From assembly GCF_051903065.1 (NCBI RefSeq), contig NZ_CP178438.1: 64,000 nt of DNA. The stretch is one strand, 5' to 3'. The notes beneath the pieces are model-generated. The model searched no databases. It saw only the letters and a program-made list of their open reading frames with translations, and had not been told where the DNA came from. Position numbers and translations under genes: made by a program. This document shows positions 23,947 through 54,793 of the stretch, in pieces (position 1 is the stretch's first letter; each line of letters starts with the position of its first letter). This stretch comes from Escherichia coli (lineage in GTDB: Bacteria > Pseudomonadota > Gammaproteobacteria > Enterobacterales > Enterobacteriaceae).

Positions 23947-24846
23947 CTACCGTGATTCATTCTCGCCAACATCCGCACATTCCTCCAACGCCGTGTGCAA
24001 AAATGCCTTCGCGGCGGCTGTCTGCCAGCTATTTTTCCGCCGCAACAAAACCGCCGTTCTCTCCAGTAGTGGCGGGGCAAGAGAAATAGCTTTAAGCCCG
24101 TCATGTTGTGTGGCAATCGCTGCTGGTAACAATGTGGAAAGGGAAGTGCGGCGAATCAGCTCCAGAACCGCGCTAATTGAGTTCGCCTCAATGACCACCT
24201 GTGGATGCAGCCCCGCTTTCTCGCAGTAGTGGTCAATTTGCTCTCTGGTGGCAAATTCCGCGCTGAGCAGTACCAGTTTTTCATCATGCAAGCGACTCAA
24301 CGCCACCTGTTCACAGGCAGCCAGCGGATGATGTTGCGCCACGACTAACGCTAAACTTTCTGTCAGTAAAGGAATTGCCTCCAGCTCCGGCGAATGCACA
24401 GCCGCGAAGGCAATCCCAACGTCCAACTCGTCGCGGCAAAGCATATCTTCGATTTTCTCCTGCGACATTTCCTGTAGCTGGAGCGTGATGCCGGGGTAGC
24501 GCGCATAGAAATCCGCCATTAAGGGGCCGATAAAGTAGCTCGTAAAGGTGGGGGTGACGGCGATACGCAGCGATCCTCGCGTCAGATCGGCAACATCATG
24601 AATCGCCCGTTTACCCGCCCCCAGTTCCTGTAACGCCCGGCTGGCGTACTGTCGCCAGACTTCTCCTGCATCAGTGAGACGAATCGTTCGCCCGCTACGG
24701 TCAAACAGCGGCACGCCTAAACTCTCCTCTAACTGGCGAATCTGCTGGGAAAGCGCAGGCTGAGAGACGTGCAACGCACTGGCGGCACGGGTGAAGCTGC
24801 CATGTTCAGCCACGGCAAGAAAATAATTGATATGTCGAGAGAGCAT
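23947..24846 (-). CDS. cynR: LysR-type regulator of the cyn operon, about 299 aa (start at MLSRHINYF)
   Basis: LysR N-terminal HTH ([32 protein letters not shown]); divergent from cynT. Confidence 0.9.
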
Positions 24847-24955
24847 TCGCCAACCTATAAGTAAATCCAATAGAACTCATCATAAATGAGACTTTTACCT
24901 TATGACAATCGGCGAGTAGTCTGCCTCTCATTCCAGAGACAGACAGAGGTTAACG

Positions 24956-25615
24956 GTGAAAGAGATTATTGATGGATTCCTTAAATTCCAGCGCGAGGCA
25001 TTTCCGAAGCGGGAAGCCTTGTTTAAACAGCTGGCGACACAGCAAAGCCCGCGCACCCTTTTTATCTCCTGCTCCGACAGCCGTCTGGTCCCTGAGCTGG
25101 TGACGCAACGTGAGCCTGGCGATCTGTTCGTTATTCGCAACGCGGGCAATATCGTCCCTTCCTACGGGCCGGAACCCGGTGGCGTTTCTGCTTCGGTGGA
25201 GTATGCCGTCGCTGCGCTTCGGGTATCTGACATTGTGATTTGCGGTCATTCCAACTGTGGCGCGATGACCGCCATTGCCAGCTGTCAGTGCATGGACCAT
25301 ATGCCTGCCGTCTCCCACTGGCTGCGTTATGCCGATTCAGCCCGCGTCGTTAATGAGGCGCGCCCGCATTCCGATTTACCGTCAAAAGCTGCGGCGATGG
25401 TACGTGAAAACGTCATTGCTCAGTTGGCTAATTTGCAAACTCATCCATCGGTGCGCCTGGCGCTCGAAGAGGGGCGGATCGCCCTGCACGGCTGGGTCTA
25501 CGACATTGAAAGCGGCAGCATCGCAGCTTTTGACGGCGCAACCCGCCAGTTTGTGCCACTGGCCGCTAATCCTCGCGTTTGTGCCATACCGCTACGCCAA
25601 CCGACCGCAGCGTAA
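24956..25615 (+). CDS. cynT: beta-class carbonic anhydrase, 219 aa
   Basis: Beta-CA motifs (CSDSR, HSNCGA). Confidence 0.9.
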
Positions 25616-25627
25616 CCTTATTTTTAA

Positions 25628-26116
<489 letters not shown>

Positions 26117-26148
26117 CAGCCATGCGCAACCATCAAAAGACGTTCACG

Positions 26149-27303
26149 ATGCTGCTGGTTCTGGTGCTGATTGGTCTTAATATGCGACCACTGCTCACCT
26201 CCGTCGGGCCACTGCTACCGCAATTGCGCCAGGCAAGCGGAATGAGCTTTAGCGTGGCTGCCCTGTTGACCGCTCTGCCGGTGGTCACCATGGGCGGGCT
26301 GGCGCTGGCCGGAAGCTGGCTTCATCAGCATGTCAGCGAACGTCGCAGCGTCGCCATCAGTTTGTTACTGATTGCCGTCGGTGCATTGATGCGTGAGCTT
26401 TACCCCCAAAGTGCGCTGCTGCTTAGCAGCGCACTGCTTGGTGGGGTGGGGATCGGCATCATTCAGGCGGTGATGCCTTCGGTGATTAAACGGCGGTTTC
26501 AGCAGCGCACGCCACTGGTGATGGGGCTGTGGTCCGCGGCTCTGATGGGCGGCGGTGGACTTGGTGCCGCCCTGACGCCCTGGTTAGTTCAACATAGCGA
26601 AACCTGGTATCAAACACTCGCCTGGTGGGCGCTGCCTGCCGTTGTTGCGCTCTTTGCCTGGTGGTGGCAAAGCACCCGCGAGGTCGCCTCTTCCCACAAG
26701 ACAACAACCACTCCGGTTCGCGTGGTTTTCACTCCTCGCGCGTGGACGCTGGGTGTTTACTTCGGTCTGATTAACGGTGGTTACGCCAGCCTGATTGCCT
26801 GGTTACCCGCTTTCTATATTGAGATTGGTGCCAGCGCGCAGTACAGCGGTTCCTTGCTGGCATTGATGACGCTTGGGCAAGCCGCAGGAGCTTTGCTAAT
26901 GCCTGCTATGGCTCGCCATCAGGATCGGCGCAAACTTTTGCTGTTGGCACTGGCGTTACAACTGGTGGGTTTCTGCGGCTTTATCTGGCTGCCGCTGCAA
27001 TTGCCGGTATTGTGGGCGATGGTGTGTGGGTTAGGTCTGGGCGGCGCGTTTCCGCTCTGTTTGCTGCTGGCGCTCGATCACTCTGCGCAACCGGCTATTG
27101 CTGGCAAGCTGGTGGCGTTTATGCAGGGGATCGGTTTTATCATCGCCGGGCTTGCCCCGTGGTTTTCTGGTGTGCTGCGTAGTATCAGCGGCAATTACCT
27201 GATGGACTGGGCATTTCATGCGCTGTGCGTCGTTGGGCTGATGATCATAACCCTGCGTTTTGCACCAGCACGTTTTCCGCAGCTGTGGGTCAAAGAGGCA
27301 TGA
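26149..27303 (+). CDS. cynX: MFS cyanate transporter, about 384 aa (ORF open from 26122)
   Basis: 12-TM MFS-like hydrophobic protein, last gene of cynTSX. Confidence 0.85.
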   Translation: MLLVLVLIGLNMRPLLTSVGPLLPQLRQASGMSFSVAALLTALPVVTMGGLALAGSWLHQHVSERRSVAISLLLIAVGALMRELYPQSALLLSSALLGGVGIGIIQAVMPSVIKRRFQQRTPLVMGLWSAALMGGGGLGAALTPWLVQHSETWYQTLAWWALPAVVALFAWWWQSTREVASSHKTTTTPVRVVFTPRAWTLGVYFGLINGGYASLIAWLPAFYIEIGASAQYSGSLLALMTLGQAAGALLMPAMARHQDRRKLLLLALALQLVGFCGFIWLPLQLPVLWAMVCGLGLGGAFPLCLLLALDHSAQPAIAGKLVAFMQGIGFIIAGLAPWFSGVLRSISGNYLMDWAFHALCVVGLMIITLRFAPARFPQLWVKEA

Positions 27304-29387: not shown

Positions 29388-32584
<3,197 letters not shown>

Positions 32585-33667
32585 TCACTGCCCGCTTTCC
32601 AGTCGGGAAACTTGTCGTGCCAGCTGCATTAATGAATCGGCCAACGCGCGGGGAGAGGCGGTTTGCGTCTTGGGCGCCAGGGTGGTTTTTCTTTTCACCA
32701 GAGAGACGGGCAAAAGCTGATTGCCCTTCACCGCCTGGCCCTGAGAGAGTTGCAGCAAGCGGTCCACGCTGGTTTGCCCCAGCAGGCGAAAATCCTGTTT
32801 GATGGTGGTTAACGGCGGGATATAACACGAGCTGTCTTCGGTATCGTCGTATCCCACTACCGAGATATCCGCACCAACGCGCAACCCGGACTCGGTAATG
32901 GCGCGCATTGCGCCCAGCGCCATCTGATCGTTGGCAACCAGCATCGCAGTGGGAACGATGCCCTCATTTAGCATTTGCATGGTTTGTTGAAAACCGGACA
33001 TGGCACTCCAGTCGCCCTCCCGTTCCGCTATCGGCTGAATTTGATTGCGAGTGAGATATTTATGCCAGCCCGCCAGACGCAGACGCGCCGAGACAGAACT
33101 TAATGGGCCCGCTAACAGCGCGATTTGCTGGTGACCCAATGCGACCAGATGCTCCACGCCCAGTCGCGTACCGTCTTCATGGGAGAAAATAATACTGTTG
33201 ATGGGAGTCTGGTCAGAGACATCAAGAAATAACGCCGGAACATTAGCGCAGGCAGCTTCCACAGTAATGGCATCCTGGTCATCCAGCGGATAGTTAATGA
33301 TCAGCCCACTGACGCGTTGCGCGAGAAGATTGTGCACCGCCGCTTTACAGGCTTCGACGCCGCTTCGTTCTACCATCGACACCACCACGCTGGCACCCAG
33401 TTGATCGGCGCGAGATTTAATCGCCGCGACAATTTGCGACGGCGCGTGCAGGGCCAGACTGGAGGTGGCAACGCCAATCAGCAACGACTGTTTGCCCGCC
33501 AGTTGTTGTGCCACGCGGTTGGGTATGTAATTCAGCTCCGCCATCGCCGCTTCCACTTTTTCCCGCGTTTTCGCAGAAACGTGGCTGGCCTGATTCACCA
33601 CGCGGGAAACGGTCTGATAAGAGACACCGGCATACTCTGCGACATCGTATAGCGTTACTGGTTTCAC
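32585..33667 (-). CDS. lacI: lactose repressor, 360 aa (GTG start)
   Basis: VKPVTLYDVAEYAGVSYQTVSRVVNQ HTH N-terminus; ends ...SRLESGQ. Confidence 0.97.
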   Translation of the reverse strand: MKPVTLYDVAEYAGVSYQTVSRVVNQASHVSAKTREKVEAAMAELNYIPNRVAQQLAGKQSLLIGVATSSLALHAPSQIVAAIKSRADQLGASVVVSMVERSGVEACKAAVHNLLAQRVSGLIINYPLDDQDAITVEAACANVPALFLDVSDQTPINSIIFSHEDGTRLGVEHLVALGHQQIALLAGPLSSVSARLRLAGWHKYLTRNQIQPIAEREGDWSAMSGFQQTMQMLNEGIVPTAMLVANDQMALGAMRAITESGLRVGADISVVGYDDTEDSSCYIPPLTTIKQDFRLLGQTSVDRLLQLSQGQAVKGNQLLPVSLVKRKTTLAPKTQTASPRALADSLMQLARQVSRLESGQ

Positions 33668-33702
33668 ATTCACCACCCTGAATTGACTCTCTTCCGGGCG
33701 CT

Positions 33703-33731
33703 ATCATGCCATACCGCGAAAGGTTTTGCGC
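33703..33731 (-). promoter_or_regulatory. lacI promoter (-35 GCGCAA, -10 CATGAT)
   Basis: Reverse complement reads GAATGGCGCAAAACCTTTCGCGGTATGGCATGATAGCGCCCGGAAGAGAGTCAATTCAGGGTGGTGAATGTG, the classical lacI promoter/leader; the -10 hexamer overlaps the stop codon of the upstream gene. Confidence 0.85.
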
Positions 33732-34657
33732 CATTCGGCGGGGCTGACGCCGAAGTGAGATTTAAAATGCTGACGCCAGGTCACAGGTGAGAGAAAACCC
33801 ACCTCAGCCGCTATCCGCTCAACGGGCAACTGACTGGATCCCAACAGTTCCTGGCTACGGCGTAAGCGTTCAGTAATGAGCCATTCGGCGATACTCGAAC
33901 CGGTCGCTTTCATAAAATGGCGAGTTAATGTGCGGCGACTCATCATTACTCGCTGCGCCAGCGAGTCGAGATCATGCTGTTGCGCAATGTTTTGCCGCAG
34001 GTAATCCAGCAGGAGGTTTATGCGTTCATCATGGGTATTTTTCGGCACCGGTTGCTCAATAAACTGCGCCTGACCGCCGGTGCGATATGGCGGTACGACC
34101 ATCCGTCGGGCAATATGGTTAGCATAGTCGCTGCCAAAATGTTGCCGAACAATATACAAACAGCAATCCAGCGCCGCGGCAGTACCGGCAGAGGTAATAA
34201 TGCCGTCATCGTCTACGTACAACGCGTTAATATCCAGATGTGTTTGTGAAAAACGTGCCTGAAATTCACGCTCGAACTCCCAGTGCGTGGCGGCACGCTT
34301 ATTTTTCAGTAAACCTGCATAGCCGAGCACAAACGTGCCCAGGCAAAGCCCGACAATCTGTGCGCCGTTATCCCGTGCGGTCGTTAAGGCTTCCAGCAGT
34401 TTTTGTGGCGGTTTTTGTGTAATTGTTCCCCAGTAAGGAATTATCACAATATCCGCCTGGATGACTGCGGTATAGTCATGGGTGGCGGTTACGGAAAACC
34501 CATCGGCAGAGTCCACGTTTCCCGGCTTTTCAGCGCAGATAATTACGTGAAAGTGTTTTTTCTCCGCCATTTTTTCGCTAAATACGATAAACGGTACGGA
34601 AAGGTGAAAAGGACTAAAACCGGCAACGGCGATAATGGCAACAGTTAGCGGGCGCAT
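33704..34657 (-). CDS. GlxA-family transcriptional regulator (DJ-1/PfpI-like domain plus AraC-type HTH), 317 aa
   Basis: N-terminal class-I glutamine-amidotransferase-like domain with conserved Cys context (IVGLCLGTFVL) and C-terminal AraC HTH (SLAQRVMMSRRTLTRHF ... VGFLSPVTWRQHFKSHFGVSPAEWRK). Confidence 0.8.
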   Translation of the reverse strand: MRPLTVAIIAVAGFSPFHLSVPFIVFSEKMAEKKHFHVIICAEKPGNVDSADGFSVTATHDYTAVIQADIVIIPYWGTITQKPPQKLLEALTTARDNGAQIVGLCLGTFVLGYAGLLKNKRAATHWEFEREFQARFSQTHLDINALYVDDDGIITSAGTAAALDCCLYIVRQHFGSDYANHIARRMVVPPYRTGGQAQFIEQPVPKNTHDERINLLLDYLRQNIAQQHDLDSLAQRVMMSRRTLTRHFMKATGSSIAEWLITERLRRSQELLGSSQLPVERIAAEVGFLSPVTWRQHFKSHFGVSPAEWRKTFRGMA

Positions 34658-34676
34658 AACACTCTTTATCTCCGAA

Positions 34677-35465
34677 TTAGAATGTCAACGTTTCACCATC
34701 TTCTGGTACGTTCACAAATTCGATAATTTGATTATCTCTGGCGTATTCCTTGAGCGCATCACGCGTCAGCAAACAGTGGTTTACGGCCTCCATATGTGTC
34801 GCGACAATTTGCGCTTCTGGCAGGGTAAAATGTGTTTTGAGAATATCTTCTGCTCCCATAATTATCGCGCCATGCCCCAGAACATGCGCAAATCCGGCAT
34901 TCAACACAACCACTTCTGGTTGGAAAGTTAGCATTGTAACCTCGACGTCGTCACGCCAGAGGGTATCGCCAGCGAGATAGAGCGTTTTCTCTGTCGGGTG
35001 CTGGAAAACAACGCCGCAGGCTGCGCCTAAACGCTTCGCCATAGCCGGGTCGGCATAGGTGCGATCGGAGCCGTGCTGCCCTGTCGTTTTATGCAGAGTA
35101 ATATCGCCAAATTTAGTCTCGTCGGTAAGTACGGTAAGATGCGTAAATCCTTGTTTATTCAGTGATTCAGCATCTTGCTCATTTTGCACATAAATCGGTT
35201 TATCTTTAGGGACGACGCGGGAGGCTGTTTCGTCCCAGTGATCTTCATGCAAATGGGTCACGATTAGGGCGTCAACGTTGAGTAACGTTGTTAAATCGCA
35301 CGGTAATTCTACCGTTGGATTGCGGATTTCTGCGCGTGCCGTTCCGGCAAAACCCGGATAACTTCCTTTAGGCGCAAGTAACGGGTCGATAAGAAATGTT
35401 TTGCCAGCGTATTGGATAATTTGGGTGGCATTACGAATTTGCGTAATTTTCATGATTTGCTCCAC
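34677..35465 (-). CDS. metallo-beta-lactamase-fold hydrolase, about 258-262 aa
   Basis: MBL zinc motif THLHEDH and downstream His/Asp ligand residues; tightly linked (19-bp gap) to the GlxA-like regulator. Confidence 0.8.
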   Translation of the reverse strand: MEQIMKITQIRNATQIIQYAGKTFLIDPLLAPKGSYPGFAGTARAEIRNPTVELPCDLTTLLNVDALIVTHLHEDHWDETASRVVPKDKPIYVQNEQDAESLNKQGFTHLTVLTDETKFGDITLHKTTGQHGSDRTYADPAMAKRLGAACGVVFQHPTEKTLYLAGDTLWRDDVEVTMLTFQPEVVVLNAGFAHVLGHGAIIMGAEDILKTHFTLPEAQIVATHMEAVNHCLLTRDALKEYARDNQIIEFVNVPEDGETLTF

Positions 35466-35567
35466 ATCACAGTATTGATGTCATTAGCGTAGCGTGCAGC
35501 CCGTACTGTGCATGTGGGCAAATGGGCGAATAACGATGAGAATGGGCCAAATTACACATTGGCGTAA

Positions 35568-36401
35568 CTAGCGTAAATGCACGCCGCTTCGCCGTCCGGC
35601 CACCAGAATAGCCTGCGATTCAACCCCTTCTTCGATCTGTTTTGCTACCCGTTGTAGTGCCGGAAGATGCTTTTCCGCTGCCTGTTCGATGGTCATTGCG
35701 CTCGCCATATACACCAGGTTCAAACAGCCAATCACCCGTTGTTCACTGCGCAGCGGTACGGCGATAGAGGCGATCTTCTCCTCCTGATCCCAGCCGCGGT
35801 AGTTCTGTCCGTAACCCTCTTTGCGCGCGCGCGCCAGAATGGCTTGCAGCTTTAACGGTTCTCGTGCCAGTTGATAGTCATCACCGGGGCGGGAGGCTAA
35901 CATTTCGATTAATTCCTTGCGTTCTTGTTCCGGGCAAAAGGCCAGCCAGGTCAGGCCCGAGGCGGTTTTCAGAAGCGGCAAACGTCGCCCGACCATTGCC
36001 CGGTGAAAGGATAAGCGGCTGAAACGGTGGGTGGTTTCGCGTACCACCATTGCATCAACATCCAGCGTGGACACATCTGTCGGCCATACCACTTCGCGCA
36101 ACAGATCGCCCAGCAGTGGGGCCGCCAGTGCAGAAATCCACTGTTCGTCACGAAATCCTTCGCTTAATTGCCGCACTTTGATGGTCAGACGAAAACTATC
36201 ATCGGAGGGACTACGCCGGACATATCCCTCTTCCTGCAGCGTCTCCAGCAGTCGCCGCACAGTGGTGCGATGCAGGCCGCTGAGTTCCGCCAGCAGCCCG
36301 ACGCTGGCACCGCCGTCAAGTTTATTTAACATATTTAATAACATTAGACCGCGGGTTAAGCCGCGCACGGTTTTGTATTCCGTCTGCTCATTGTTCTGCA
36401 T
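35568..36401 (-). CDS. mhpR: IclR-family activator of mhp genes, 277 aa (start at MQNNEQTEY; ORF open to 36482)
   Basis: IclR-type HTH and effector domain; divergent from mhpA. Confidence 0.9.
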   Translation of the reverse strand: MQNNEQTEYKTVRGLTRGLMLLNMLNKLDGGASVGLLAELSGLHRTTVRRLLETLQEEGYVRRSPSDDSFRLTIKVRQLSEGFRDEQWISALAAPLLGDLLREVVWPTDVSTLDVDAMVVRETTHRFSRLSFHRAMVGRRLPLLKTASGLTWLAFCPEQERKELIEMLASRPGDDYQLAREPLKLQAILARARKEGYGQNYRGWDQEEKIASIAVPLRSEQRVIGCLNLVYMASAMTIEQAAEKHLPALQRVAKQIEEGVESQAILVAGRRSGVHLR

Positions 36402-36591
36402 ATTAATTGACATTTCTATAGTTAAAACAACGTTGTGCACCTGGTGCACATTCGGGCATGTTTTGATTGTAGCCGAAAACACCCTTTCTATACTGAGCGC
36501 ACAATAAAAAATAATTTACATGTTTTTAACAAAATAAGTTGCGCTGTACTGTGCGCGCAACGGCATTTTGTCCGAGTCGTGAGGTACTGAA

Positions 36592-38256
36592 ATGGCAATA
36601 CAACACCCTGACATCCAGCCTGCTGTTAACCATAGCGTTCAGGTGGCGATCGCTGGTGCCGGTCCGGTCGGGCTGATGATGGCGAACTATCTCGGCCAGA
36701 TGGGCATTGACGTGCTGGTGGTGGAGAAACTCGATAAGTTGATCGACTACCCGCGTGCGATTGGTATTGATGACGAGGCGCTGCGCACCATGCAGTCGGT
36801 CGGCCTGGTCGATAATGTTCTGCCGCATACTACGCCGTGGCACGCGATGCGTTTTCTCACCCCGAAGGGCCGCTGTTTTGCTGATATTCAGCCAATGACC
36901 GATGAATTTGGCTGGCCGCGCCGTAACGCCTTTATTCAGCCGCAGGTCGATGCGGTGATGCTGGAAGGGGTGTCGCGTTTTCCGAATGTGCGCTGCTTGT
37001 TTTCCCGCGAGCTGGAGGCCTTCAGTCAGCAAGATGACGAAGTGACCTTGCACCTGAAAACGGCAGAAGGGCAGCGGGAAATAGTCAAAGCCCAGTGGCT
37101 GGTGGCCTGTGATGGTGGGGCAAGTTTTGTCCGTCGCACCCTGAATGTGCCGTTTGAAGGTAAAACTGCGCCAAATCAGTGGATTGTGGTAGATATCGCC
37201 AACGATCCGTTAAGTACGCCGCATATCTATTTGTGTTGCGATCCGGTGCGCCCGTATGTTTCTGCCGCGCTACCTCATGCGGTACGTCGCTTTGAATTTA
37301 TGGTGATGCCAGGAGAAACCGAAGAACAGCTGCGTGAGCCGCAAAATATGCGCAAGCTGTTAAGCAAAGTGCTGCCTAATCCGGACAATGTTGAATTGAT
37401 TCGCCAGCGTGTCTACACCCACAACGCGCGACTGGCGCAACGTTTCCGTATTGATCGCGTACTGCTGGCGGGCGATGCCGCGCACATCATGCCGGTATGG
37501 CAGGGGCAGGGCTATAACAGTGGTATGCGCGACGCCTTTAACCTCGCATGGAAACTGGCGTTGGTTATCCAGGGGAAAGCCCGCGATGCGCTGCTCGATA
37601 CCTATCAACAAGAACGTCGCGATCACGCCAAAGCGATGATTGACCTGTCCGTGACGGCGGGCAACGTGCTGGCTCCGCCGAAACGCTGGCAGGGTACGTT
37701 ACGTGACGGCGTTTCCTGGCTGCTGAATTATCTGCCGCCAGTAAAACGCTACTTCCTCGAAATGCGCTTCAAGCCGATGCCGCAATATTACGGCGGTGCG
37801 CTGGTGCGTGAGGGCGAGGCGAAGCACTCTCCGGTCGGCAAGATGTTTATTCAGCCGAAAGTCACGCTGGAAAACGGCGACGTGACGCTACTCGATAACG
37901 CGATTGGCGCGAACTTCGCAGTAATTGGCTGGGGATGCAATCCACTATGGGGGATGAGCGACGAGCAAATCCAGCAGTGGCGCGCGTTGGGCACACGCTT
38001 CATTCAGGTGGTGCCGGAAGTGCAAATTCATACCGCACAGGATAACCACGACGGCGTACTACGCGTGGGGGATACGCAAGGTCGCCTGCGTAGCTGGTTC
38101 GCGCAACACAATGCTTCGCTGGTGGTGATGCGCCCGGATCGCTTTGTTGCCGCCACCGCCATTCCGCAAACTCTGGGCAAGACCCTGAATAAACTGGCGT
38201 CGGTGATGACGCTGACCCGCCCTGATGCCGACGTTTCTGTCGAAAAGGTAGCCTGA
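36592..38256 (+). CDS. mhpA: 3-(3-hydroxyphenyl)propionate hydroxylase (FAD monooxygenase), 554 aa
   Basis: FAD-binding GxGxxG ([12 protein letters not shown]); mhp operon context. Confidence 0.9.
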
Positions 38257-47629: not shown

Positions 47630-48676
47630 TTATGCCGCATCCGCTAAAACAAACATCCCGTAAGGATGGATTTCGAGGTAATAGTGCTCACCAATATCGG
47701 GCTGTAAACGGGTGGCGTTTACTTGTAATAAAATCTCCTGTCCATGCCACTCTACGGTCACTTCGTACTGCGGCCCCATGTAGGCGACATGGCGAATAAC
47801 ACAACGCTGACTCTCTTCGCCGTGATTGCTTAAGGTGATGGCTTCCGGGCGAACGCCGACGGTGCCGCTACCTTGCGCCGGGAAATGCGCCGCGCGCGGC
47901 AGGCGATAACCGTAGATATCGACATACTCTTCGCTAAAGTTCGCCGGGAACAGGTTGGCGTCGCCCATAAAACTTGCCATAAATCGGGAGGCTGGCTGAC
48001 GATAGAGATCCTGCGGTGAGCCAATCTGCATGATGTGACCTTTATTCATCACCAACACAGTGTCGGACACCGCGAAAGCTTCACTTTGATCGTGAGTGAC
48101 GTAGAGCGACGTGATATTAAACTGCTTTTGCAGCTCGCGGATCTTATCGCGCATACTGCGGCGCAGGTTGGCATCGAGGTTACTTAACGGCTCATCAAAC
48201 AGCAGCACCTTTGGCTTGAGGATCAACGCGCGGGCCAGTGCCACACGCTGTTGCTGACCACCGGAAATCTGATCGACATAGCGGTCCTCGAAGCCTTCCA
48301 GATCCACCATTGCCAGCGCCTCCTTCACCCGCTGTTTCACTTCGCTACGCGAGACGCCAAGCATCTTCAGCCCGTAGCCAACGTTTTCACCCAGCGACAT
48401 ATGCGGGAACAGAGCGTATGACTGAAACACCATGCAGATATCGCGCTGTTGAATGGAACGATGCGTGACATCTTCGCCATCAATAAAAATTTGCCCTTCG
48501 CTCGGTTTTTCCAGCCCGGCAACCAGACGCAAAATGGTGGTTTTGCCACAGCCGGAAGGACCGAGCAGCGTCACCATTTGCCCTTGTGGAATGGTGAGAT
48601 TGATATTGTCGATAACCGTATTACTGCCGAATCGTTTAGTGACGTTGCGCAGTTCAACAAAATTTTTCTGACTCAT
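47630..48676 (-). CDS. afuC: ABC transporter ATP-binding subunit (AfuC-type), about 348 aa (ORF open to 48688)
   Basis: Walker [10 protein letters not shown], signature [15 protein letters not shown], Walker [12 protein letters not shown]; GGAG Shine-Dalgarno before the ATG at 48676. Confidence 0.8.
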
Positions 48677-48687
48677 AGTGCGCTCCA

Positions 48688-50766
48688 TTACGCCTGGTTT
48701 TTGGCTTTAGAACGGGAGATACGAGCTTCTCCGATCAGCCAGTCAAAGAGGAAAATAATCGCCAGCATCACCACGATCAGAATCGAACCATAGGCGATGG
48801 CTACGCCATATTCGCCGTCTTCAACGCGGTTAAGAATGTAGGCGGTTGCCACGCGGGTGTCCGGCGTGACGAGAAAGACGATGGCGCTGACCGTCGTGAT
48901 GGCCCGCACAAAGCTGTAGATCAGGGCCGAGAGAATGGCCGGACGCAGCAGTGGCAGTAAAATGTGGGTTATGGTTCGCAAGGAACCTGCGCGCAGGCTG
49001 AGTGAGGCTTCATCCAGCGATTTGTCGATCTGCCCCAGGCCTGCAATCCCGGCGCGAATACCCACCGGAACGTTACGCATCACCATCGAGATAATCACAA
49101 TTGCCGCCGTTCCGGTGAGATAAACCGGAGCGCTGTTAAAGGCAAGAATATACGAAACGCCCGCCACCGTACCCGGTACGGCAAAGCACAGCATGGTGGT
49201 GAACTCGATGGTCTTTTTGCCTTTGAATTGTTGACGCACCACCACCCAGGCGATGAGCAGGCCAAAGATAGCGGTAATGGGAGCGGCAATCCCGGCGTAG
49301 AGCAGGGTATCCAGCAGTGAAGGCCACGCGCCGTCGCTCATTCCCTGACCAAATAGCTTGATAAAGTTATCCAGCGTCAGGGTGTAGTCCACGCCCCAGT
49401 TCACCGTGAAGCTGCCGTAGAAAATGCTGCCGTAGAGCAGGGCGTTAAAGGCAATCCATATCGCAAGTATGGCGACCACGCTCCACACCAGGGTGACCGG
49501 TAGCGGCTGGACGTCGCCACGGTAGGATTTGCCGGAAACCGTGACGTAAGAGCGTTTACCAATCCACATATACTGGATGCAGAACACCAGCAGCGAGAAC
49601 AGCAGCAGGAAAGCGCCAAGGGTGCTGGCGGCCTGATAATCCAGCTGCGAGCCGGTAATATAGAAGTAAATTTGCGTCGCCAGTACGTCGAAGTTACCGC
49701 CAAGTACCAGCGGGTTACTGAAATCAGCCAGTGACTGTACCACGACGATTAAAAAGGCATTGGCGAGTGCGGGCTTCAACAACGGCACAAACACGCCGTT
49801 AAAGGTTTGCCAGCGGCTGGCGCGCAGGGTGTAGGAGGCCTCTTCCAGCGAGGGATGAATGGTTTTAATGGCCCCGTCGAGGATCATAAATGCCATTGGC
49901 GTGAATGCCAGAACCTGTGCCAGCCAGATCCCGGTAAAACCGTACAGCCAGTTGGTGTTGGTCAGCCCAAACCACTCCACCATAAATTCCGTAACATAGC
50001 CGGAGCGCCCCATCATGAGCGTCACGCCTAAGCCGACCACAAACGGTGGCGTAACGATGGGCAAAATGGAAAAGATGCGACCAATAATGGCGCTGCGTTT
50101 AGCGATGCGCGTGGTATAAATCGCCAGCACCAGGCCGAAGAAAGTACAGCCTATCCCCACCGCTATCGACAAGACGATAGAGTTGACGATCACCTGAACA
50201 ATATGTGCCTGCGAGAGCACGGTCATAAACGCCAGCGGGGCGAACTCTCCCGCGTCGTTGGTGAACATCGGGATAAAAATGGCGATGCTCGGCCAGACGA
50301 TAAAAATGCCAATCAGCGCCACAATCGCAATCAGTGAGCCGATCACGAAGCGGTCGCCACCCAGCCATTCGAGGCGGGTTAAGGCCAGCGTCATAATCGC
50401 GCCTAGTTCGACAAACAGCACGATGGCGGCGTAGCCTAAACCGCGTCCAACCACGGTGGCGCTGATGACGATAAACGCCATACAGAGCAATGCCCAGCCG
50501 GCATCGAAATAATGACGGCTACGTTGTTCGCGCGTGGCCTCACTAAACGGGCGGACCAGCAACAGGCTCGGGAGTAAATACCACAGCCAGCTGATATTAA
50601 AATGCGACCAGCCATAAGCCTCGAGGATCTCATCACTCGTGGACTCCAGCAGGCCATAATCGAGGCTCCAGCTCGGCAACAGTATAAATGCCAGCCAGCC
50701 CAGCAAAACCCAAAGGAAAATCGCATCCCGCTTTTTCACGGGATGGAGTGCAAGTGTCTGTGACAT
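48688..50766 (-). CDS. afuB: ABC transporter permease with duplicated membrane domain (AfuB-type), about 692 aa (ORF track starts at a TTG at 50817)
   Basis: Very hydrophobic roughly 700-aa protein with two permease halves; stop overlaps afuC start. Confidence 0.75.
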
Positions 50767-50834
50767 AGTAGTTCCGGTATGGTTGGCCGGGGCAGGCGTT
50801 TGTGCTGCACCCGGCAAATACGCCTAATGCGGGT

Positions 50835-51866
50835 TTATTTACCCATCTTCACTTCGCTGACCCATTTATTAATCAATGCCTTACGAACATCCGTGGAACC
50901 ATATTTATCCATGTCGTAGTTGATTAATTTCAGGTCGTCGAGCTTCAGCGAATTTGGCGACGTTTCGGCGGTGGTATTGGTCAGGATCTGATAAGACTTC
51001 CCTTTCTTCCACGCCAGTTCCTGAGCTTCTTTTGATAATACCCAGTCCACAAACAGTTTGGCGTTGTCGAGGTTGCGCGCGCCTTTCAGAATGCTGACGC
51101 CGCCAATTTCGTAGCCCGTACCTTCACACGGGGAAATCAACTCCAGCGGCGCGCCCTGTTCTTTTTCCAGCGAGTAGTCATGCAGGAAGCCAATACCAAT
51201 CGCCGTTTCGCCACGGGCGGCGTTACGTGCCGGGGCTATGCCTGATTTGGTGTACTGAGAGACGTTGGCGTTCAGTTGTTTTAGATAATCAAAGGCCTGA
51301 TCTTCCCCCCACAGCTGCGCAAAAGTAGCCAGGGCGGTGTAGGCAGTACCGGAACTTTGCGGATCGGCAATTTGAATTTCGCCTTTATATTCCGGTTTGG
51401 TGAGATCTTTCCAGCACTTCGGCACCGGCAGGTTTTTCTCTTTCAGACGATCGGTGTTTACGCCAAAACCGAGGATCCCCACATAAACGGCAGAGGACAG
51501 ATTCCCTTTCACTTTTGCCGGATCGCGGAATTTCTCCATGATCTGCTCAAGGGTAGGGGATTTATACGCCTGTAGCAGGCCCATCTCGCCAGCCTGCGAT
51601 TGCGGGTCTAAAGTGCCGCCGTACCAGACGTCAGCCTGGGGGTTTTTCTTTTCAGCATCGACTTTTGCCAGGGTGCTTCCGGAACCGTTGCGGATAAACG
51701 AGGTTTTTACATCATATTTCTCGCCAAACGCTTTGGTTTCGGCCTCACACATTTCATTGGTGGCGCTGCAATAGACCACCAGCCGGCCTTTTGCCTGCGC
51801 GGCACCCGTTAAAGTCGCCAGCGCAACGGCAGAAGCAATCAGAGTAGAGGTAAAGGTCATTTTCAT
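50835..51866 (-). CDS. afuA: periplasmic substrate-binding protein (AfuA/FbpA-type), 343 aa (start at MKMTFTST; ORF track extends upstream into the next gene)
   Basis: Signal peptide MKMTFTSTLIASAVALATLTGAAQA; start ATG overlaps the stop of the upstream MFS gene (ATGA). Confidence 0.75.
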   Translation of the reverse strand: MKMTFTSTLIASAVALATLTGAAQAKGRLVVYCSATNEMCEAETKAFGEKYDVKTSFIRNGSGSTLAKVDAEKKNPQADVWYGGTLDPQSQAGEMGLLQAYKSPTLEQIMEKFRDPAKVKGNLSSAVYVGILGFGVNTDRLKEKNLPVPKCWKDLTKPEYKGEIQIADPQSSGTAYTALATFAQLWGEDQAFDYLKQLNANVSQYTKSGIAPARNAARGETAIGIGFLHDYSLEKEQGAPLELISPCEGTGYEIGGVSILKGARNLDNAKLFVDWVLSKEAQELAWKKGKSYQILTNTTAETSPNSLKLDDLKLINYDMDKYGSTDVRKALINKWVSEVKMGK

Positions 51867-53179
51867 TGTTTTATCCTTCGAGCGTGAGTGGTGGTGATGC
51901 CCGCCATCAGTAACGGCATCAGCAGTAAACCCATAAGTACTGCGGCGACCGAGAGTAAACTGAACATTCCCGGCCAGCCGTAGCGTTCGATGACCAGCGA
52001 CAGCGGCCAGCCTGCCAGCGCCGCGCCAAGGTAAGCGAACAGGCCGAGAAATCCGGTGATTGAACCCGCCGCAGCTTTGTGCCCACACTCCACCGCCGCA
52101 AGTCCAATCAGCATTTGTGGGCCAAAGACGAAAAAGCCCACGGTAAAAAAGCACACTGCCAGCAGAGCGTAGTGATGAACCGGTGCCAGCCACAGTGCGG
52201 CGACTGACACCATCAACCCCAACGTGAACAGCAAAATCATTGGCGCTCGTTGCCCGCTAAACAGCAAATCCGATCCCCATCCGGCAAATAACGCGCCGAG
52301 TAAGCCGCCCACTTCAAACAGCATTACCGTGGCGTTGGCGCTGAGCAGGTTGACACCGTGGCTTTCCGTCAGCCAGATATTGCCCCAGTCGTTAAGCGCA
52401 ATCCGGATCACATAAACCAGTACATAAGAGACGCCCAGTAGCCAGATCAGCGGATTTTGCAGCATGGTGGTGCGCAACATTTGCCACAGCCCCATCGGCG
52501 GACTTTGTTGTTCCTGACGTAACTCCAGCGGATCGTGACGCCAGTGACCAACTGTCGGTAATCCCTCTTCCTGGGGCGTGCCTTTGAGTTGTAGCGTTAA
52601 CCAGATCCCTAATGCCATGCTGATTATCCCCGGTGTCAGCATCGCGGCCTGCCAGCCCCACCAGTGGGCGGCAAAGGCGCTAATCAGCGGAATAATCGCT
52701 CCGCCAATGTTGATCGACATATTCCAGCAGCCCCACCAGAAACCGCGCTCATTGCGTGAGTACCAGTGGGTCAGCAAGCGGGCACACGGTGGCCATCCCC
52801 AGCCCTGAAAAAAACCGTTCAGTGTCCAGACCACAAGCAGAAGCGTAAGTGATTCGCCAAAGGCAAACACCACGTTCAATAACCCGGTGGCGAACAAGCC
52901 GACGCCCATAAAACCGCGTTGTCCGTGGCTGTCATGCCACAGTCCGGCGGTAAATTTCGACAATCCGTAGCTGAGATAAAACAGCGAACCCAGCAGGCCA
53001 ATGTCGCCTTTATCCAGTCCGAGGTCGGTTTGTAGCGCCGGAAGGACGTAATTCACGCTTTTTCGCGTCAGATAAAATGCGGCGTAGCCAATAATCATGC
53101 ACATCAGCAATCGCGGACGTAATGCCCGGTAGCATTGATTAATTTCTCTCGCTGAACGCGCGTGCATGGTTGTCTCCAT
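51863..53179 (-). CDS. UhpC-like MFS sugar-phosphate sensor/transporter, 438 aa
   Basis: 12-TM organophosphate:Pi-antiporter-family protein of UhpC size, downstream of UhpB/UhpA-like genes. Confidence 0.75.
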   Translation of the reverse strand: METTMHARSAREINQCYRALRPRLLMCMIIGYAAFYLTRKSVNYVLPALQTDLGLDKGDIGLLGSLFYLSYGLSKFTAGLWHDSHGQRGFMGVGLFATGLLNVVFAFGESLTLLLVVWTLNGFFQGWGWPPCARLLTHWYSRNERGFWWGCWNMSINIGGAIIPLISAFAAHWWGWQAAMLTPGIISMALGIWLTLQLKGTPQEEGLPTVGHWRHDPLELRQEQQSPPMGLWQMLRTTMLQNPLIWLLGVSYVLVYVIRIALNDWGNIWLTESHGVNLLSANATVMLFEVGGLLGALFAGWGSDLLFSGQRAPMILLFTLGLMVSVAALWLAPVHHYALLAVCFFTVGFFVFGPQMLIGLAAVECGHKAAAGSITGFLGLFAYLGAALAGWPLSLVIERYGWPGMFSLLSVAAVLMGLLLMPLLMAGITTTHARRIKQ

Positions 53180-53251
53180 GTTGCTGACTATATGAAAATG
53201 AAAGTGAAAGGGGATGAGAGAAAATCCGGGATACCTAAGACTTTTTCCTGG

Positions 53252-54793
53252 TTATCCGGCGATTTGTTGCAAAAATGTGGGCAAGTTAACAATTACCCGC
53301 GTGCCGTGCTGTTTTTCGAGCGTTAAGTCGCCGCCCAGGGCGCTGACGCGCTCACGCATCCCCTGAATGCCAAATCCGGCCATTTTCCCGCTGGCGATCC
53401 CCACACCGTTGTCGCTGACCTCCAGATGCAATACCTCTCCCTGCTGGCGCAGGATAATCGTCACTTCGCTGGCTTCGGCGTGTTTACAGACGTTATTGAG
53501 CAACTCCTGCAATAACCGATACAAGGTAAAGCGCACCGTTTCGTTTTCTGGTGTGGAGTTCAGTTGATAGGCAAACTGGCAATGAATGCCGCGTTCACCA
53601 AAGGCAAATTCATTAATCAGATGCAACAACGCTTCGCGAAATGTCAGTTCATCAAGCGCGGGAGGCCGCAACTGGCGCAGCAATTGGCGGGTGGAGAGAT
53701 GAATGCGGCGGGCGAGCTCATTGATTTGGCTGGCTGCGGATTGAATTTGCGCCGGATCACGCGCCCGCTTCACCAGTTGCGACTGGATCTGAATGGCGGT
53801 GATGTTCTGACCGATTTCGTCGTGCAGCTCTCGCGCCAGGTTTTTTCGCGTGTCCTCCTCGGTGTGGATCAACTTTTCCGCCAATGCCCGCCGCGCTGCC
53901 AGCTCGGCCTCCAGCCGTTGTCGGTAATGGTGCAGGTTTAGCGCCAGATGTTGCTGGCGACTGATGGCAATGCCCAGGCCAATTCCCAGCAAGGCCTGGG
54001 TCGCGAGGAAAATCTCCAGCTCCACCAGGTTACTAAAGCCCACGCCAATCTGGCGGGCGATGGTGATCATCATGCTGCCCAAAAGCCCGGAGAGTACGCC
54101 ACCTTGCCAGCCAAATTTCCACGCCATCACCACATTGGGCAAAAAGACCACGATCAACAGCAGACGCTCAATTTCAGGTGACAGCACCATCTGAGTGCCG
54201 ATACCAATGATAAAAAACAGGCTACACCAGATGATTAAAGAGGTACGCAAGGGGGGATTATGCGTATCGAGTCCCAGGAGCTGGTAGCGATGCTGCTGGC
54301 GCAGAAACTCAAAGATAAGATAGACAAACGGCGTCAGTAATACGCCGCCGGTAAATGAGGTCAAACCCGGCAGCATTATTGGGCCTGACATAAAAGGGGA
54401 GAGCAGGGCGGTATTCAACAATGAAGCTGCCGTGACAGTGGCTAACAGCAACGTCAGACGCTGCCAGTAAAGTGGAAAACGGTGCCAGAAGTTTTGCGCA
54501 AGGAGGACAGGAAACAGGCTAATAACCGGCGTTGCCAGCATGAGATAACCGTTCAATAGCTGCTCACTATGGAGCCAGAACATCATCAGCAAAGGGGGGA
54601 GTACCAACGCAGGCCAGTAGCGGCGAGAGAGCAAAATAACAAGGGCGAGATAAACTCCCTGCGGGAGAAACAACACCGCCTGTTGACCGTTATTGGTCAG
54701 ATAAAAGCTGAGCGTCCACAGCATCAGCCAGCCGGTTCCCCAGGCCAACACAATAAACAGCGAAATCACCCAATGACGAAGATTGCGCGACAT
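53252..54793 (-). CDS. UhpB-like sensor histidine kinase, 513 aa
   Basis: N-terminal multi-TM sensor region, HisKA_3 H-box ELHDEIGQNITAI, ATPase region (VSDNGVGI). Confidence 0.8.
   Translation of the reverse strand: MSRNLRHWVISLFIVLAWGTGWLMLWTLSFYLTNNGQQAVLFLPQGVYLALVILLSRRYWPALVLPPLLMMFWLHSEQLLNGYLMLATPVISLFPVLLAQNFWHRFPLYWQRLTLLLATVTAASLLNTALLSPFMSGPIMLPGLTSFTGGVLLTPFVYLIFEFLRQQHRYQLLGLDTHNPPLRTSLIIWCSLFFIIGIGTQMVLSPEIERLLLIVVFLPNVVMAWKFGWQGGVLSGLLGSMMITIARQIGVGFSNLVELEIFLATQALLGIGLGIAISRQQHLALNLHHYRQRLEAELAARRALAEKLIHTEEDTRKNLARELHDEIGQNITAIQIQSQLVKRARDPAQIQSAASQINELARRIHLSTRQLLRQLRPPALDELTFREALLHLINEFAFGERGIHCQFAYQLNSTPENETVRFTLYRLLQELLNNVCKHAEASEVTIILRQQGEVLHLEVSDNGVGIASGKMAGFGIQGMRERVSALGGDLTLEKQHGTRVIVNLPTFLQQIAG

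Follow-up and report, generated by a model that had tools for sequence, protein, structure and literature searches.

Between mhpR and lacI, the 64,000-nucleotide stretch of Escherichia coli DNA analyzed here (the window) carries a two-gene module, and the lacI core promoter lies wholly within the last codons and the stop of its second gene, ovrA. The explanation that we hold with good confidence is that this module is an ancestral O-island 19 (OI-19), that K-12 lost it by deletion, and that it would constitute an isothiocyanate-detoxification operon with its own regulator. The pair itself is already known and has been described as OI-19; new here are the homology of the hydrolase to SaxA, the adjacency of saxA-like and ovrA-like genes, and a conserved upstream box.

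All genes concerned lie on the minus strand, in the order mhpR (35568-36401), which encodes the IclR-type regulator of the mhp operon and is the upstream neighbor of the module, the hydrolase gene (34677-35453, the z0443 ortholog), a 19-nt gap, ovrA (33704-34657), a 36-nt gap and lacI (32585-33667), with lacZ at 29388-32462. These coordinates, taken from open reading frames and direct reading, agree with an initial annotation of the sequence that had placed two co-directional genes, 19 bp apart, between lacI and mhpR. The lacI reading frame corresponds to matching RefSeq records annotated as lacI, and its product shares 99.4% amino acid identity with O157 LacI. Its canonical start is the GTG at 33667-33665; in the program-made listing the frame is longer and runs to an in-frame GTG at 33676, upstream of the canonical start. 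The two module products had been described as a 317-aa regulator with a DJ-1/PfpI-like domain and an AraC helix-turn-helix, and as a protein of about 260 aa with a metallo-beta-lactamase motif. Pfam finds both DJ-1_PfpI (PF01965, residues 6-171, 1e-12) and HTH_18 (PF12833, residues 233-311, 3e-19) in the 317-aa OvrA. The hydrolase has 258 aa from an ATG with GGAG 7 nt upstream (an alternative GTG start at 35465 gives 262 aa), a Lactamase_B_2 domain (PF12706, residues 20-221, 2e-11) and the sequence HLHEDH at residues 67-72. Both are real genes, intact and annotated in 435 complete genomes; the frames are unbroken in relatives too, except for a minority allele that has lost 36 aa in frame, HLHEDH among them, so they are not frameshifted pseudogenes.

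This pair is, beyond reasonable doubt, OI-19 (z0443 plus z0442/ovrA) of EHEC O157:H7, found here in a non-O157 E. coli. The regulator and the hydrolase are 99.4% and 98.8% identical in amino acid sequence, over their full lengths, to the O157:H7 proteins, and RefSeq gives the gene name ovrA at the same lacI-mhpR position in O157:H7. Serotype names among the 435 module-bearing genomes are O157:H7, O55:H7, O145:H28 and O157:H16, with other genomes carrying none. OI-19 has been defined as z0442 (ovrA) and z0443, and OvrA binds LEE1 (Liu et al. 2020 J Infect Dis 221:820, summarized in PMC8565820 and PMC10877973). For LEE-positive strains, OvrA has been published as activating the LEE1 promoter and ler (PMC8565820, PMC10877973), and deletion of z0443 left virulence without visible change (PMC8565820). 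There is no LEE in the window. The earlier statement that the function of the module is unknown thus fails for the regulator, since OvrA is published and the module is a named island, and for the hydrolase it is tempered by a close characterized relative, SaxA.

The 3' end of ovrA reads ...GCC GAA TGG CGC AAA ACC TTT CGC GGT ATG GCA TGA. Read directly, the lacI core promoter (33703-33731, minus strand) consists of a -35 element GCGCAA (33731-33726), a 17-nt spacer and a -10 element CATGAT (33708-33703). We take GCGCAA and CATGAT to be the -35 and -10 hexamers of lacI (Pi), which were reportedly described by Calos in 1978; in lacIq, an up-mutation in the -35 hexamer changes GCGCAA to GTGCAA. 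A paper stating the two hexamers was not found in the openly accessible literature. GCGCAA sits in ovrA codons W309-R310-K311, and the ovrA stop TGA (33706-33704) falls within CATGAT, a base-for-base match to the proposal that the lacI promoter is the 3' end of the regulator gene with its stop inside the -10 hexamer. A consensus promoter scan of the window did not flag the lacI promoter, because it is a weak one. The same promoter text adjoins lacI in Citrobacter sedlakii, with the same overlap of the ovrA end. A CRP site has been reported on the lacI promoter at -6 to +22, a position downstream of the K-12 breakpoint that does not discriminate between junction states.

Alignment of MG1655 with the window places lacI and mhpR 76 nt apart, confirming that the two are adjacent in K-12. 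Identity is unbroken from lacI up to 33737 and then breaks, precisely where the usual K-12 promoter fragment had been said to diverge, just upstream of GAATGG. The segment 33737-35567 (1831 nt) is missing in K-12-type genomes, with 7 nt after the mhpR stop in its place (net 1824 nt), and the piece of ovrA that survives in K-12, judged by identity and read as a relic, is the 33 nt at 33704-33736 (minus strand), comprising codons E308-A317 and TGA. Short direct repeats stand at the ends of the deleted segment, CATTCGGCG at 33732-33740 and CATT-GGCG at 35557-35564. Between the mhpR stop region and GAATGG lies a 10-nt junction filler, TGACACCATC in K-12 and TAATGCCGCC in the E. coli W-type allele; neither side accounts cleanly for the 7-10 nt of the K-12 junction, which differ between the two junction alleles. 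We rejected an origin of the filler from TAATG[A/C]CATC upstream of the hydrolase start, which scored 11/16 only, a value reached by 226 and 190 of 500 shuffles. A clean deletion between CGCC(G)AATG repeats, also rejected, predicts TAGTTACGCC, which matches the W-type filler at 7/10 and the K-12 filler at only 3/10. We propose that most E. coli would have lost the pair by a deletion of ~1.82 kb ending 5 nt upstream of the lacI -35 element, and that the K-12 lacI promoter would be what remained of ovrA, its last 10 codons and stop.

We surveyed 5426 complete genomes, of which 4394 have the K-12-type junction, with exactly the last 10 ovrA codons and the stop kept, and only 435 have the intact module. 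K-12 and most E. coli therefore lack both genes, which answers the objection that intact orthologs might be general at this position. Another 487 genomes (CFT073, AR_0017 and 485 others) combine yaiL with a 99-nt ovrA relic (33704-33802, minus strand) that lies ~66 nt upstream of it, is 100% identical to the window over the 99 nt, and appears in PGAP annotation as 'GlxA family transcriptional regulator, incomplete'. Here a second, independent and larger deletion (CFT073-type, phylogroup B2) would have taken mhp, the hydrolase gene and most of ovrA and spared the promoter. The order mhpR-MBL-ovrA-lacI-lacZ is common to the window, C. sedlakii, and E. marmotae-like and 'unclassified Escherichia' assemblies. 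This shared order and the two different deletion products within E. coli bear out the earlier suggestion that K-12 carries a deletion. Its companion, that Pi derives from a gene terminus, is upheld by the 33 nt of K-12, which encode E308-A317 and the stop with the family-conserved residues W309, R310 and F313. Across 81 family members these three are kept in at least 90-98%, including Aeromonas and Erwinia genes without a nearby lacI, and P306, R310 and F313 reach at least 98% conservation; the C-termini read SP.EWR[KR]TF in Citrobacter, Kluyvera, Erwinia, Aeromonas and a plasmid paralog. Judged by these comparisons, the polarity of the deletion and the origin of the promoter as a relic of ovrA are very probably as described, and the pair would be an old resident of the mhp-lac junction rather than an insertion.

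The conventional O-island view holds the reverse, namely that a foreign pair was inserted between lacI and mhpR in O157/phylogroup E and that the K-12 arrangement is ancestral. It fits the way the literature defines the module, as an island that K-12 lacks, its presence in just 435 of the 5426 genomes, its modest dip in G+C (47-51% versus 54-57% in the flanks) and its patchiness within the genus, there being no match in the species-representative genomes of other Escherichia species. What it cannot account for are the 10 conserved family codons and stop of a reading frame in DNA common to K-12, and the different 99-nt piece of ovrA in CFT073-type genomes. The gene order shared with C. sedlakii and divergent Escherichia also speaks against it, as does the makeup of the module, which consists of two genes only, with no mobility genes (integrase, IS), no att sites or terminal repeats at its borders, and no flanking repeat longer than ~9 nt. 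We consider such an insertion highly improbable. A less distant alternative accepts that the module is ancestral and takes the present Escherichia copies to be one allele recently spread by homologous recombination via the lacI/mhpR flanks, so that phylogroup E and E. marmotae-like genomes would have re-acquired it and not kept it through unbroken vertical descent. Within Escherichia the module diverges by 2-3% versus 5-11% for the flanks: in E. marmotae-like contigs, identity to the window is 97-98% for the hydrolase gene and ovrA, 88.7% for lacI/lacZ and 94-95% for mhpA/mhpR, and RMDEC465, 2020CK-00188 and 'unclassified Escherichia' show a weaker form of the same pattern. Slow evolution does not explain the low divergence in Escherichia, since in comparisons between genera the identity of the module (71-73%) falls below that of mhp (82%). 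The low divergence and the lower G+C point to a module that has moved to some extent, by recombination or horizontally. However, the comparison covers a handful of loci, the lac flanks may be unusually divergent for reasons of their own, and the relics in K-12 and in CFT073-type (B2) genomes still need module-bearing ancestors inside E. coli, and we regard a recent spread of this kind as rather doubtful.

Under the preferred reading, an ancestral module deleted in K-12, the first gene would encode a SaxA-type enzyme. The hydrolase aligns end to end with SaxA (PDB ID: 6BRM) over 259 aa with 54% identity, 71% positives and E = 5e-87, and its conserved motifs (H67xH69xD71H72, H127, D163 and H220) have identical residues aligned in 6BRM and 3RPC. 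Downstream of the closest relatives of the crystallized SaxA (93% and 85% identity) there is also a DJ-1+HTH_18 regulator, which is 57% identical to OvrA. Five clusters of SaxA (CL1-CL5) are described. Characterized SaxA clusters are ~45% identical to one another yet have kept activity (PMC7036374). At 54% identity to an enzyme with demonstrated activity, the E. coli protein lies within the internal divergence of the family. An earlier report of z0443 as a SaxA homolog was not found in the openly accessible literature, which is weak evidence of novelty. A SaxA-type metallo-hydrolase, as the first product of the operon, would convert isothiocyanates to an amine and carbonyl sulfide, and this homology tilts the balance slightly toward an isothiocyanate as the substrate.

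The partner gene encodes a regulator whose best NCBIfam match is FtrA (E = 1e-95). Because its 320 bits against the FtrA equivalog model NF006902 lie below the cut-off of 425, we regard OvrA as a relative of FtrA and not FtrA itself. Its PDB matches are AdpA/AraC DNA-binding domains and DJ-1-class enzymes, and C105, C165 and C166 are near-invariant, being conserved in 99% of the family (81 sequences). Of 80 OvrA-homolog loci across Proteobacteria, 66 have a SaxA-like gene next to the regulator gene, co-directional in 39 and divergent in 27, and the hydrolase-regulator pair is also present on E. coli plasmids, with a plasmid cassette that carries an extra 'ester cyclase' gene. Phylogenetic footprinting identified a conserved operator/promoter-like box, TTTGGCCCATTCTCATCGTTATTCGCCCATTTGCCCACATG (35511-35551, minus strand), which precedes the start of the hydrolase gene by ~60-100 nt. 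A direct repeat within the box, GCCCATT-N13-GCCCATT at 35521-35547, is unique in the window (0.16 expected by chance). The footprint is kept from E. coli through Citrobacter, Kluyvera and an Enterobacter plasmid to Aeromonas, and also in Geomonas, and 33 of the 38 co-directional loci have the box at a constant distance. The published OvrA site at LEE1, GACATTTAATGATAATG, bears no resemblance to the conserved box and is absent near the hydrolase promoter; the window holds only two matches to the LEE1 motif, each with 3 mismatches, at 10791 and inside lacZ. We propose that the hydrolase gene and ovrA would form one operon, with OvrA as the cognate GlxA/AraC-type regulator that would act at the TGGCCC...GCCCA box upstream of the hydrolase gene and whose DJ-1-like domain would probably sense the electrophile or a ligand related to it. 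The hydrolase gene next to ovrA is probably under the control of OvrA. An operon for isothiocyanate detoxification that includes its own regulator would later have been co-opted for LEE control.

Several points leave room for a different function, in which isothiocyanates are not what the hydrolase cleaves, the pair serves some other small molecule (a lactone, an ester or an electrophile), and the likeness to SaxA reflects family membership only. The source annotation is generic ('MBL fold metallo-hydrolase' or 'UlaG'), the NCBIfam match of the hydrolase is weak, members of the family come from gut, aquatic and marine bacteria (Aeromonas, Marinobacter and Geomonas) for which contact with Brassicales is not obvious, the plasmid cassette adds its 'ester cyclase', and z0443 is RpoS-dependent, a general stress pattern. 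We nevertheless think another substrate unlikely, given the full-length identity of 54% to an enzyme with demonstrated activity, the activity reported to be kept across SaxA clusters only ~45% identical, and the same regulator partner beside bona fide SaxA relatives. The transcription of lacI raises a further question. A crude consensus scan found no terminator-like site between the hydrolase gene, ovrA and lacI; because there is none between ovrA and lacI, operon transcripts may run into lacI, although we doubt that such read-through matters. In its strongest form, module-bearing strains would express lacI mainly through read-through from the hydrolase gene and ovrA, with the internal promoter minor, and the deletion would then have altered lacI expression. 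Gaps of just 19 and 36 nt, the lack of terminator-like sites in that scan, and the expression and RpoS dependence of z0443 in EDL933 are compatible with this. However, the scan was a crude consensus search, and the -35, the spacer and the -10 are identical in all states and were spared by two independent deletions, which argues that the internal promoter is needed; we regard dominant read-through as unlikely. We also speculated that OvrA could be an isothiocyanate or electrophile sensor that controls the hydrolase operon and, in EHEC, also raises LEE expression and LacI dosage via read-through. Covalent or reversible modification of the near-invariant DJ-1-type cysteine(s) would switch OvrA on, and active OvrA would induce the saxA-like hydrolase operon from the TGGCCC...GCCCA box. 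This combined scheme is a long shot.

If the deletion is read correctly, the constitutive lacI promoter of countless vectors would be a fossil of the last ten codons of a neighboring gene that K-12 has lost, and what precedes GAATGG in the promoter fragment in common use would be a deletion scar. A report of the lacI promoter as a gene remnant was not found in the openly accessible literature, again weak evidence of novelty. The locus would provide a clean example of a promoter embedded in a coding sequence that outlived its host gene, twice independently. 'O-island 19' as an EHEC acquisition would be a mislabel, the module being ancestral and K-12 derived, and OvrA in LEE control would be an old housekeeping regulator that was co-opted, not an imported virulence regulator. 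For z0443, which is 'unknown' in the searchable EHEC literature, the homology predicts a specific activity that is cheap to test, the hydrolysis of isothiocyanates. This prediction is relevant because allyl isothiocyanate has been studied as an anti-O157 food preservative, and crucifers are eaten by cattle and people. If the sensor scheme were true, crucifer compounds that reach the cattle or human gut with the diet would directly tune EHEC colonization.

Among known systems, OI-19 of EDL933 has the same lacI-mhpR position, the same two genes and a similar length (1834 bp reported in PMC8565820 versus 1824-1831 nt here). The window differs from O157, being 100% identical to ECNB21-M121 and 99.2% identical to O157. 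The literature treats OI-19 as an island unique to EHEC relative to K-12, with z0443 'unknown', whereas here it appears ancestral, lost twice, with its 3' end forming the lacI promoter. SaxA (6BRM; the sax genes of Pseudomonas syringae and Pectobacterium) shares the MBL fold, full-length homology and the metal motifs, and its nearest relatives share a downstream DJ-1+AraC regulator with the E. coli pair. In open papers saxC of P. syringae is called merely 'a transcriptional regulator'. In E. coli, a gut commensal or pathogen, the gene lies on the chromosome and encodes a predicted enzyme of this type, whereas SaxA comes from a plant pathogen or an insect-gut plasmid. GlxA/FtrA-type AraC regulators such as FtrA and GbdR have the same two-domain architecture and conserved elbow cysteine as OvrA, but the conserved partner of OvrA is the MBL hydrolase, whereas GbdR controls genes of choline/betaine metabolism. 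Every state examined has the sequence of the K-12 lacI promoter Pi unchanged between the lacI start and a point 5 nt upstream of the -35; in the window this promoter lies inside a live coding sequence, whereas in K-12 it is a non-coding relic with different DNA upstream of the -35.

As the initial annotation had described, two co-directional genes 19 nt apart lie on the minus strand between lacI and mhpR, and their coordinates come from ORFs and from reading of the sequence. The hydrolase gene (34677-35453, 258 aa, with an ATG start and GGAG in front) is separated from mhpR (35568-36401) by a spacer of 114 nt and is followed by the regulator gene, ovrA (33704-34657, 317 aa), by lacI (32585-33667, canonical GTG start at 33667-33665) and by lacZ (29388-32462, from the ORF listing and direct sequence reading), all on the minus strand. 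A GTG at 35465 is an alternative start for the hydrolase, giving a protein of 262 aa (length from the ORF listing). Pfam assigns the regulator a DJ-1_PfpI domain (residues 6-171) and an HTH_18 domain (residues 233-311), matching the DJ-1/PfpI-like and AraC-type HTH regions proposed for it, and assigns the protein of roughly 260 aa with a metallo-β-lactamase motif a Lactamase_B_2 domain (residues 20-221), with HLHEDH at residues 67-72. At base level, every element of the annotation proved correct.

The pair is O-island 19 (OI-19) of EHEC O157:H7 EDL933, comprising z0443 and z0442/ovrA, and is thus a system of known kind. RefSeq names the regulator in O157:H7 records 'ovrA: OI-19-encoded virulence regulator OvrA', and the amino acid identity to the O157:H7 proteins is 99.4% for the regulator and 98.8% for the hydrolase. 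Across 33500-35700 the window and the meat isolate ECNB21-M121 agree at every position (100% identity), compared with 99.2% identity to O157; the window therefore does not come from O157. According to two reviews (PMC8565820, PMC10877973; primary report Liu et al. 2020), OvrA activates ler, binding GACATTTAATGATAATG in the LEE1 promoter, and promotes both adherence and colonisation; in the same sources, deletion of z0443 left virulence without visible change and the gene is called unknown. RpoS-dependence of z0443 in EDL933 was 10-fold (PMC2907692).

The regulator gene ends in GAA TGG CGC AAA ACC TTT CGC GGT ATG GCA TGA. This text holds GCGCAA (33731-33726, minus strand) and, 17 nt from it, the start of CATGAT (33708-33703, minus strand), the established -35 and -10 hexamers of lacI (Calos 1978). 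Direct reading bore out the claim that CATGAT encloses the TGA stop of the regulator. No paper quoting the hexamers GCGCAA and CATGAT was found in the literature searched. No terminator-like site was found between the hydrolase gene, ovrA and lacI, so transcripts could possibly read through into lacI. The lacIq mutation reportedly changes GCGCAA to GTGCAA.

In K-12, lacI and mhpR are adjacent, as the initial annotation stated, with 76 nt between them in MG1655. Alignment shows that K-12 equals the window from lacI through 33737, that is through GAATGG, the point upstream of which divergence had been expected; on the mhpR side identity runs up to the mhpR stop codon, and between the breakpoints K-12 has 7 nt (CACCATC) versus 1831 nt in the window. 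The suspected deletion in K-12, and the derivation of the lacI promoter from a gene terminus, are upheld by a coding relic, outgroup synteny, a second deletion type and the absence of mobile-element signs. The 33 nt kept in K-12 are the stop and the conserved codons E308-A317 of ovrA. When 81 regulator family members are aligned, P306, R310 and F313 are conserved in at least 98% and W309 in at least 90%, and the C-terminus SP.EWR[KR]TF recurs in Citrobacter, Kluyvera, Erwinia, Aeromonas, a plasmid paralogue and a Serratia homologue, the last four without lacI alongside. Because the terminus is conserved in relatives, including those away from lacI, the ovrA coding sequence is primary and the K-12 promoter text its relic. 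Citrobacter has the order mhpA, mhpR, hydrolase, regulator, lacI, lacZ, and in C. sedlakii the genes adjoin one another just as in the window, the regulator ending in GAATGGCGAAAAACCTTTCGCGGTATGGCATGATAGCGCG followed by the lacI GTG; the order from mhpR to lacZ also occurs in E. marmotae-like and 'unclassified Escherichia' assemblies. No integrase, IS or att-like repeat was found at the module.

Among 5426 complete E. coli genomes, a collection skewed to sequenced pathogens in which counts of states are not population frequencies, the full module stretch is present in 435 (megablast, query 33500-35700), the K-12-type junction in 4394, and a different arrangement in 487, including CFT073 (phylogroup B2) and AR_0017, with about 110 unresolved. 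In the 487 genomes the DNA next to lacI is a 99-nt ovrA 3' end, which PGAP annotates as an incomplete gene of the GlxA family, and the region upstream of yaiL comes next; a second, independent deletion has removed the hydrolase gene, all of the mhp operon and most of ovrA. Loss of the mhp pathway is independently reported as a hallmark of phylogroup B2, ST131 and ST452 excepted (PMC13001218). Both deletions end upstream of the lacI promoter, 5 nt (K-12 type) and 71 nt (99-nt type) from the -35 hexamer, as expected if loss of lacI expression was selected against.

The segment deleted in K-12 is flanked by a short imperfect direct repeat, CATTCGGCG at 33732-33740 and CATT-GGCG at 35557-35564 (plus strand), and a clean deletion between the two repeat copies predicts TAGTTACGCC ahead of GAATGG. 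The K-12-type allele reads TGACACCATC. An exact match to a W-type allele, TAATGCCGCC, occurs in 165 genomes, E. coli W and O91:H21 strains among them (for example strain 2013C-3492, locus L088 of the relatives compared, 301-388), and this allele adds 5 nt of identity with ovrA. Of 10 positions, the predicted product agrees with the W-type filler at 7 and with the K-12 filler at 3; the two alleles differ at 5/10 positions within surrounding DNA that is 95-99% identical. They reflect either one event with later, unusual local divergence or two events. Candidate sources for the filler elsewhere in the module gave nothing above chance.

Within Escherichia the module has diverged less than its flanks: in E. 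marmotae-like contigs, nucleotide identity to the window is 97.9% for the hydrolase gene, 97.2% for ovrA, 94.2% for mhpA, 94.8% for mhpR, 88.8% for lacI and 88.6% for lacZ, and divergent Escherichia (L099, L100, L102-L104; window 30700-38256) give 97-98% for the module genes, 94-95% for mhpR and 88.7-96% for lacI/lacZ. Between E. coli and C. sedlakii the module has diverged more than mhp (hydrolase gene 70.8%, ovrA 72.6%, mhpA 82.0%, mhpR 81.7%, lacI 77.1%, lacZ 78.6%). The G+C content of the module (47-51%) is below that of the flanks (54-57%), and no match to the module was found in other Escherichia species among species-representative genomes. Taken together, the low divergence within Escherichia as against the higher one from C. 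sedlakii, the dip in G+C and the absence from species representatives suggest that one module allele may have spread recently among Escherichia lineages by recombination via conserved flanks. Such spread is compatible with the polarity of the deletion, but 'ancestral' should then not be taken to mean 'strictly vertical'. In most Citrobacter species other than C. sedlakii, the regulator gene and lacI are separated by a 207-aa ORF encoded on the other strand (L004 8951-9744, L007, L016 and others), and the 60 nt beside lacI keep a second, degenerate copy of the end of the regulator gene (AATGACGAAAAACCTTTCATGGTGTGGCATGATAGCGCG in Citrobacter sp. MGH106, for example), a further case of promoter text travelling with lacI.

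The hydrolase aligns over its whole length with PDB 6BRM, deposited as 'metal-dependent isothiocyanate hydrolase SaxA' (E = 5e-87, 54% identity, 71% positives), and H67, H69, D71, H72, H127, D163 and H220 are conserved without exception. SaxA catalyses the reaction of R-N=C=S with water to an amine and carbonyl sulfide. PMC7036374 describes the saxA family as widespread in Enterobacterales, with five clusters of about 45% mutual identity and activity kept in all five; judged by its sequence, the E. coli hydrolase falls inside this range of divergence. An allele with an in-frame 36-aa deletion (residues 50-85; window 35199-35306) occurs at L095 5001-5669 (GCA_019913935.1) and in at least 10 other contigs, beside an intact regulator gene; with HLHEDH, the metal-binding motif, removed, a minority of strains probably have an inactive hydrolase. 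The lac operon has on its other side cynR and cynTSX (carbonic anhydrase, cyanase, transporter; 23947-27303). Carbonyl sulfide is a carbonic anhydrase substrate, and the nearness of these genes may be coincidence.

A SaxA-like gene adjoins the OvrA relative (48-80% identity) in 66 of 80 loci from a species-representative genome collection, spanning Enterobacterales, Aeromonas, Vibrio, Marinobacter, Halomonas, Burkholderiales and Geomonas. The hydrolase gene is co-directional and directly upstream in 39 (gaps of 18-180 nt in all but one) and divergent in 27 (intergenic 225-372 nt). The closest relatives of the crystallised SaxA, from Serratia fonticola (93%) and Acinetobacter soli (85%), are both followed by a DJ-1+HTH_18 regulator, and the Serratia regulator shares 57% identity with OvrA along its entire length. 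On 128 E. coli plasmids, for example the IncY plasmid pTET-GZEC065 (L084 5001-7192), there is a paralogous cassette in which an 'ester cyclase' accompanies a hydrolase of 63% and a regulator of 58% identity. Plasmid CP083586 of ECNB21-M121 also bears it, and as the chromosome of that strain is 100% identical to the window over the 2.2 kb compared (33500-35700), the strain may hold the system in two copies.

Upstream of the hydrolase gene, a box of about 38 nt, TGGCCCAATCnCATCGnTAnTCGCCCATTTGCCCAC (35511-35551), stands in an otherwise unconserved spacer and is kept in E. coli, Citrobacter, Kluyvera, an Enterobacter plasmid and Aeromonas. Its repeat, GCCCATT-N13-GCCCATT, occurs once in the 64-kb window (0.16 expected by chance). 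The box lies about 97-101 nt 5' of the start codon in 33/38 co-directional loci, and a related form, TGGCCCGATTnTTTCGAT, is found in Marinobacter-type divergent loci. The linkage in two architectures and the co-conserved cis-element argue that the regulator would control the hydrolase operon. Three cysteines of the regulator, C105 (the DJ-1 'elbow' residue, within GLCLG), C165 and C166, are conserved in 99% of its family; because isothiocyanates react with thiols, cysteine-based sensing of isothiocyanates by OvrA is conceivable. The published LEE1 site of OvrA does not resemble the box, and no such site was found near it; either the specificity of OvrA is relaxed or native and LEE1 sites are bound differently. 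The only LEE1 motif matches in the window are at 32069-32085 (inside lacZ) and 10791-10807, with 3 mismatches each; 0.25 were expected, 2/100 shuffles reach two, and no function is suggested.

Elsewhere in the window, a six-gene block between frmR and tauA (47630-55422) encodes a response regulator, a MASE1 sensor kinase, a UhpC-like sensor/transporter and a three-gene ABC transporter including fbpC; CFT073 has yaiO and yaiP instead at the matching frmR flank. This block probably corresponds to O-island 20 of EDL933, because PMC2907692 assigns Z0463, a 'putative response regulator', to OI-20.

In the literature searched, which covers few subscription papers and neither the primary OvrA paper nor the SaxA structure paper, no statement was found that the lacI promoter is an ovrA relic, and none that z0443 is homologous to SaxA. 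What is added to the known system is a new reading of its evolution and a specific prediction of what the hydrolase does. By position between lacI and mhpR and by orthology, the window pair is OI-19 and its regulator OvrA. OvrA belongs to the GlxA/FtrA-like class by architecture, but at 320 bits does not reach the FtrA equivalog cut-off of 425 bits. The hydrolase has the sequence features of the SaxA family and is a predicted member of it, and the label 'acquired island' does not suit OI-19 by that label's own criteria.
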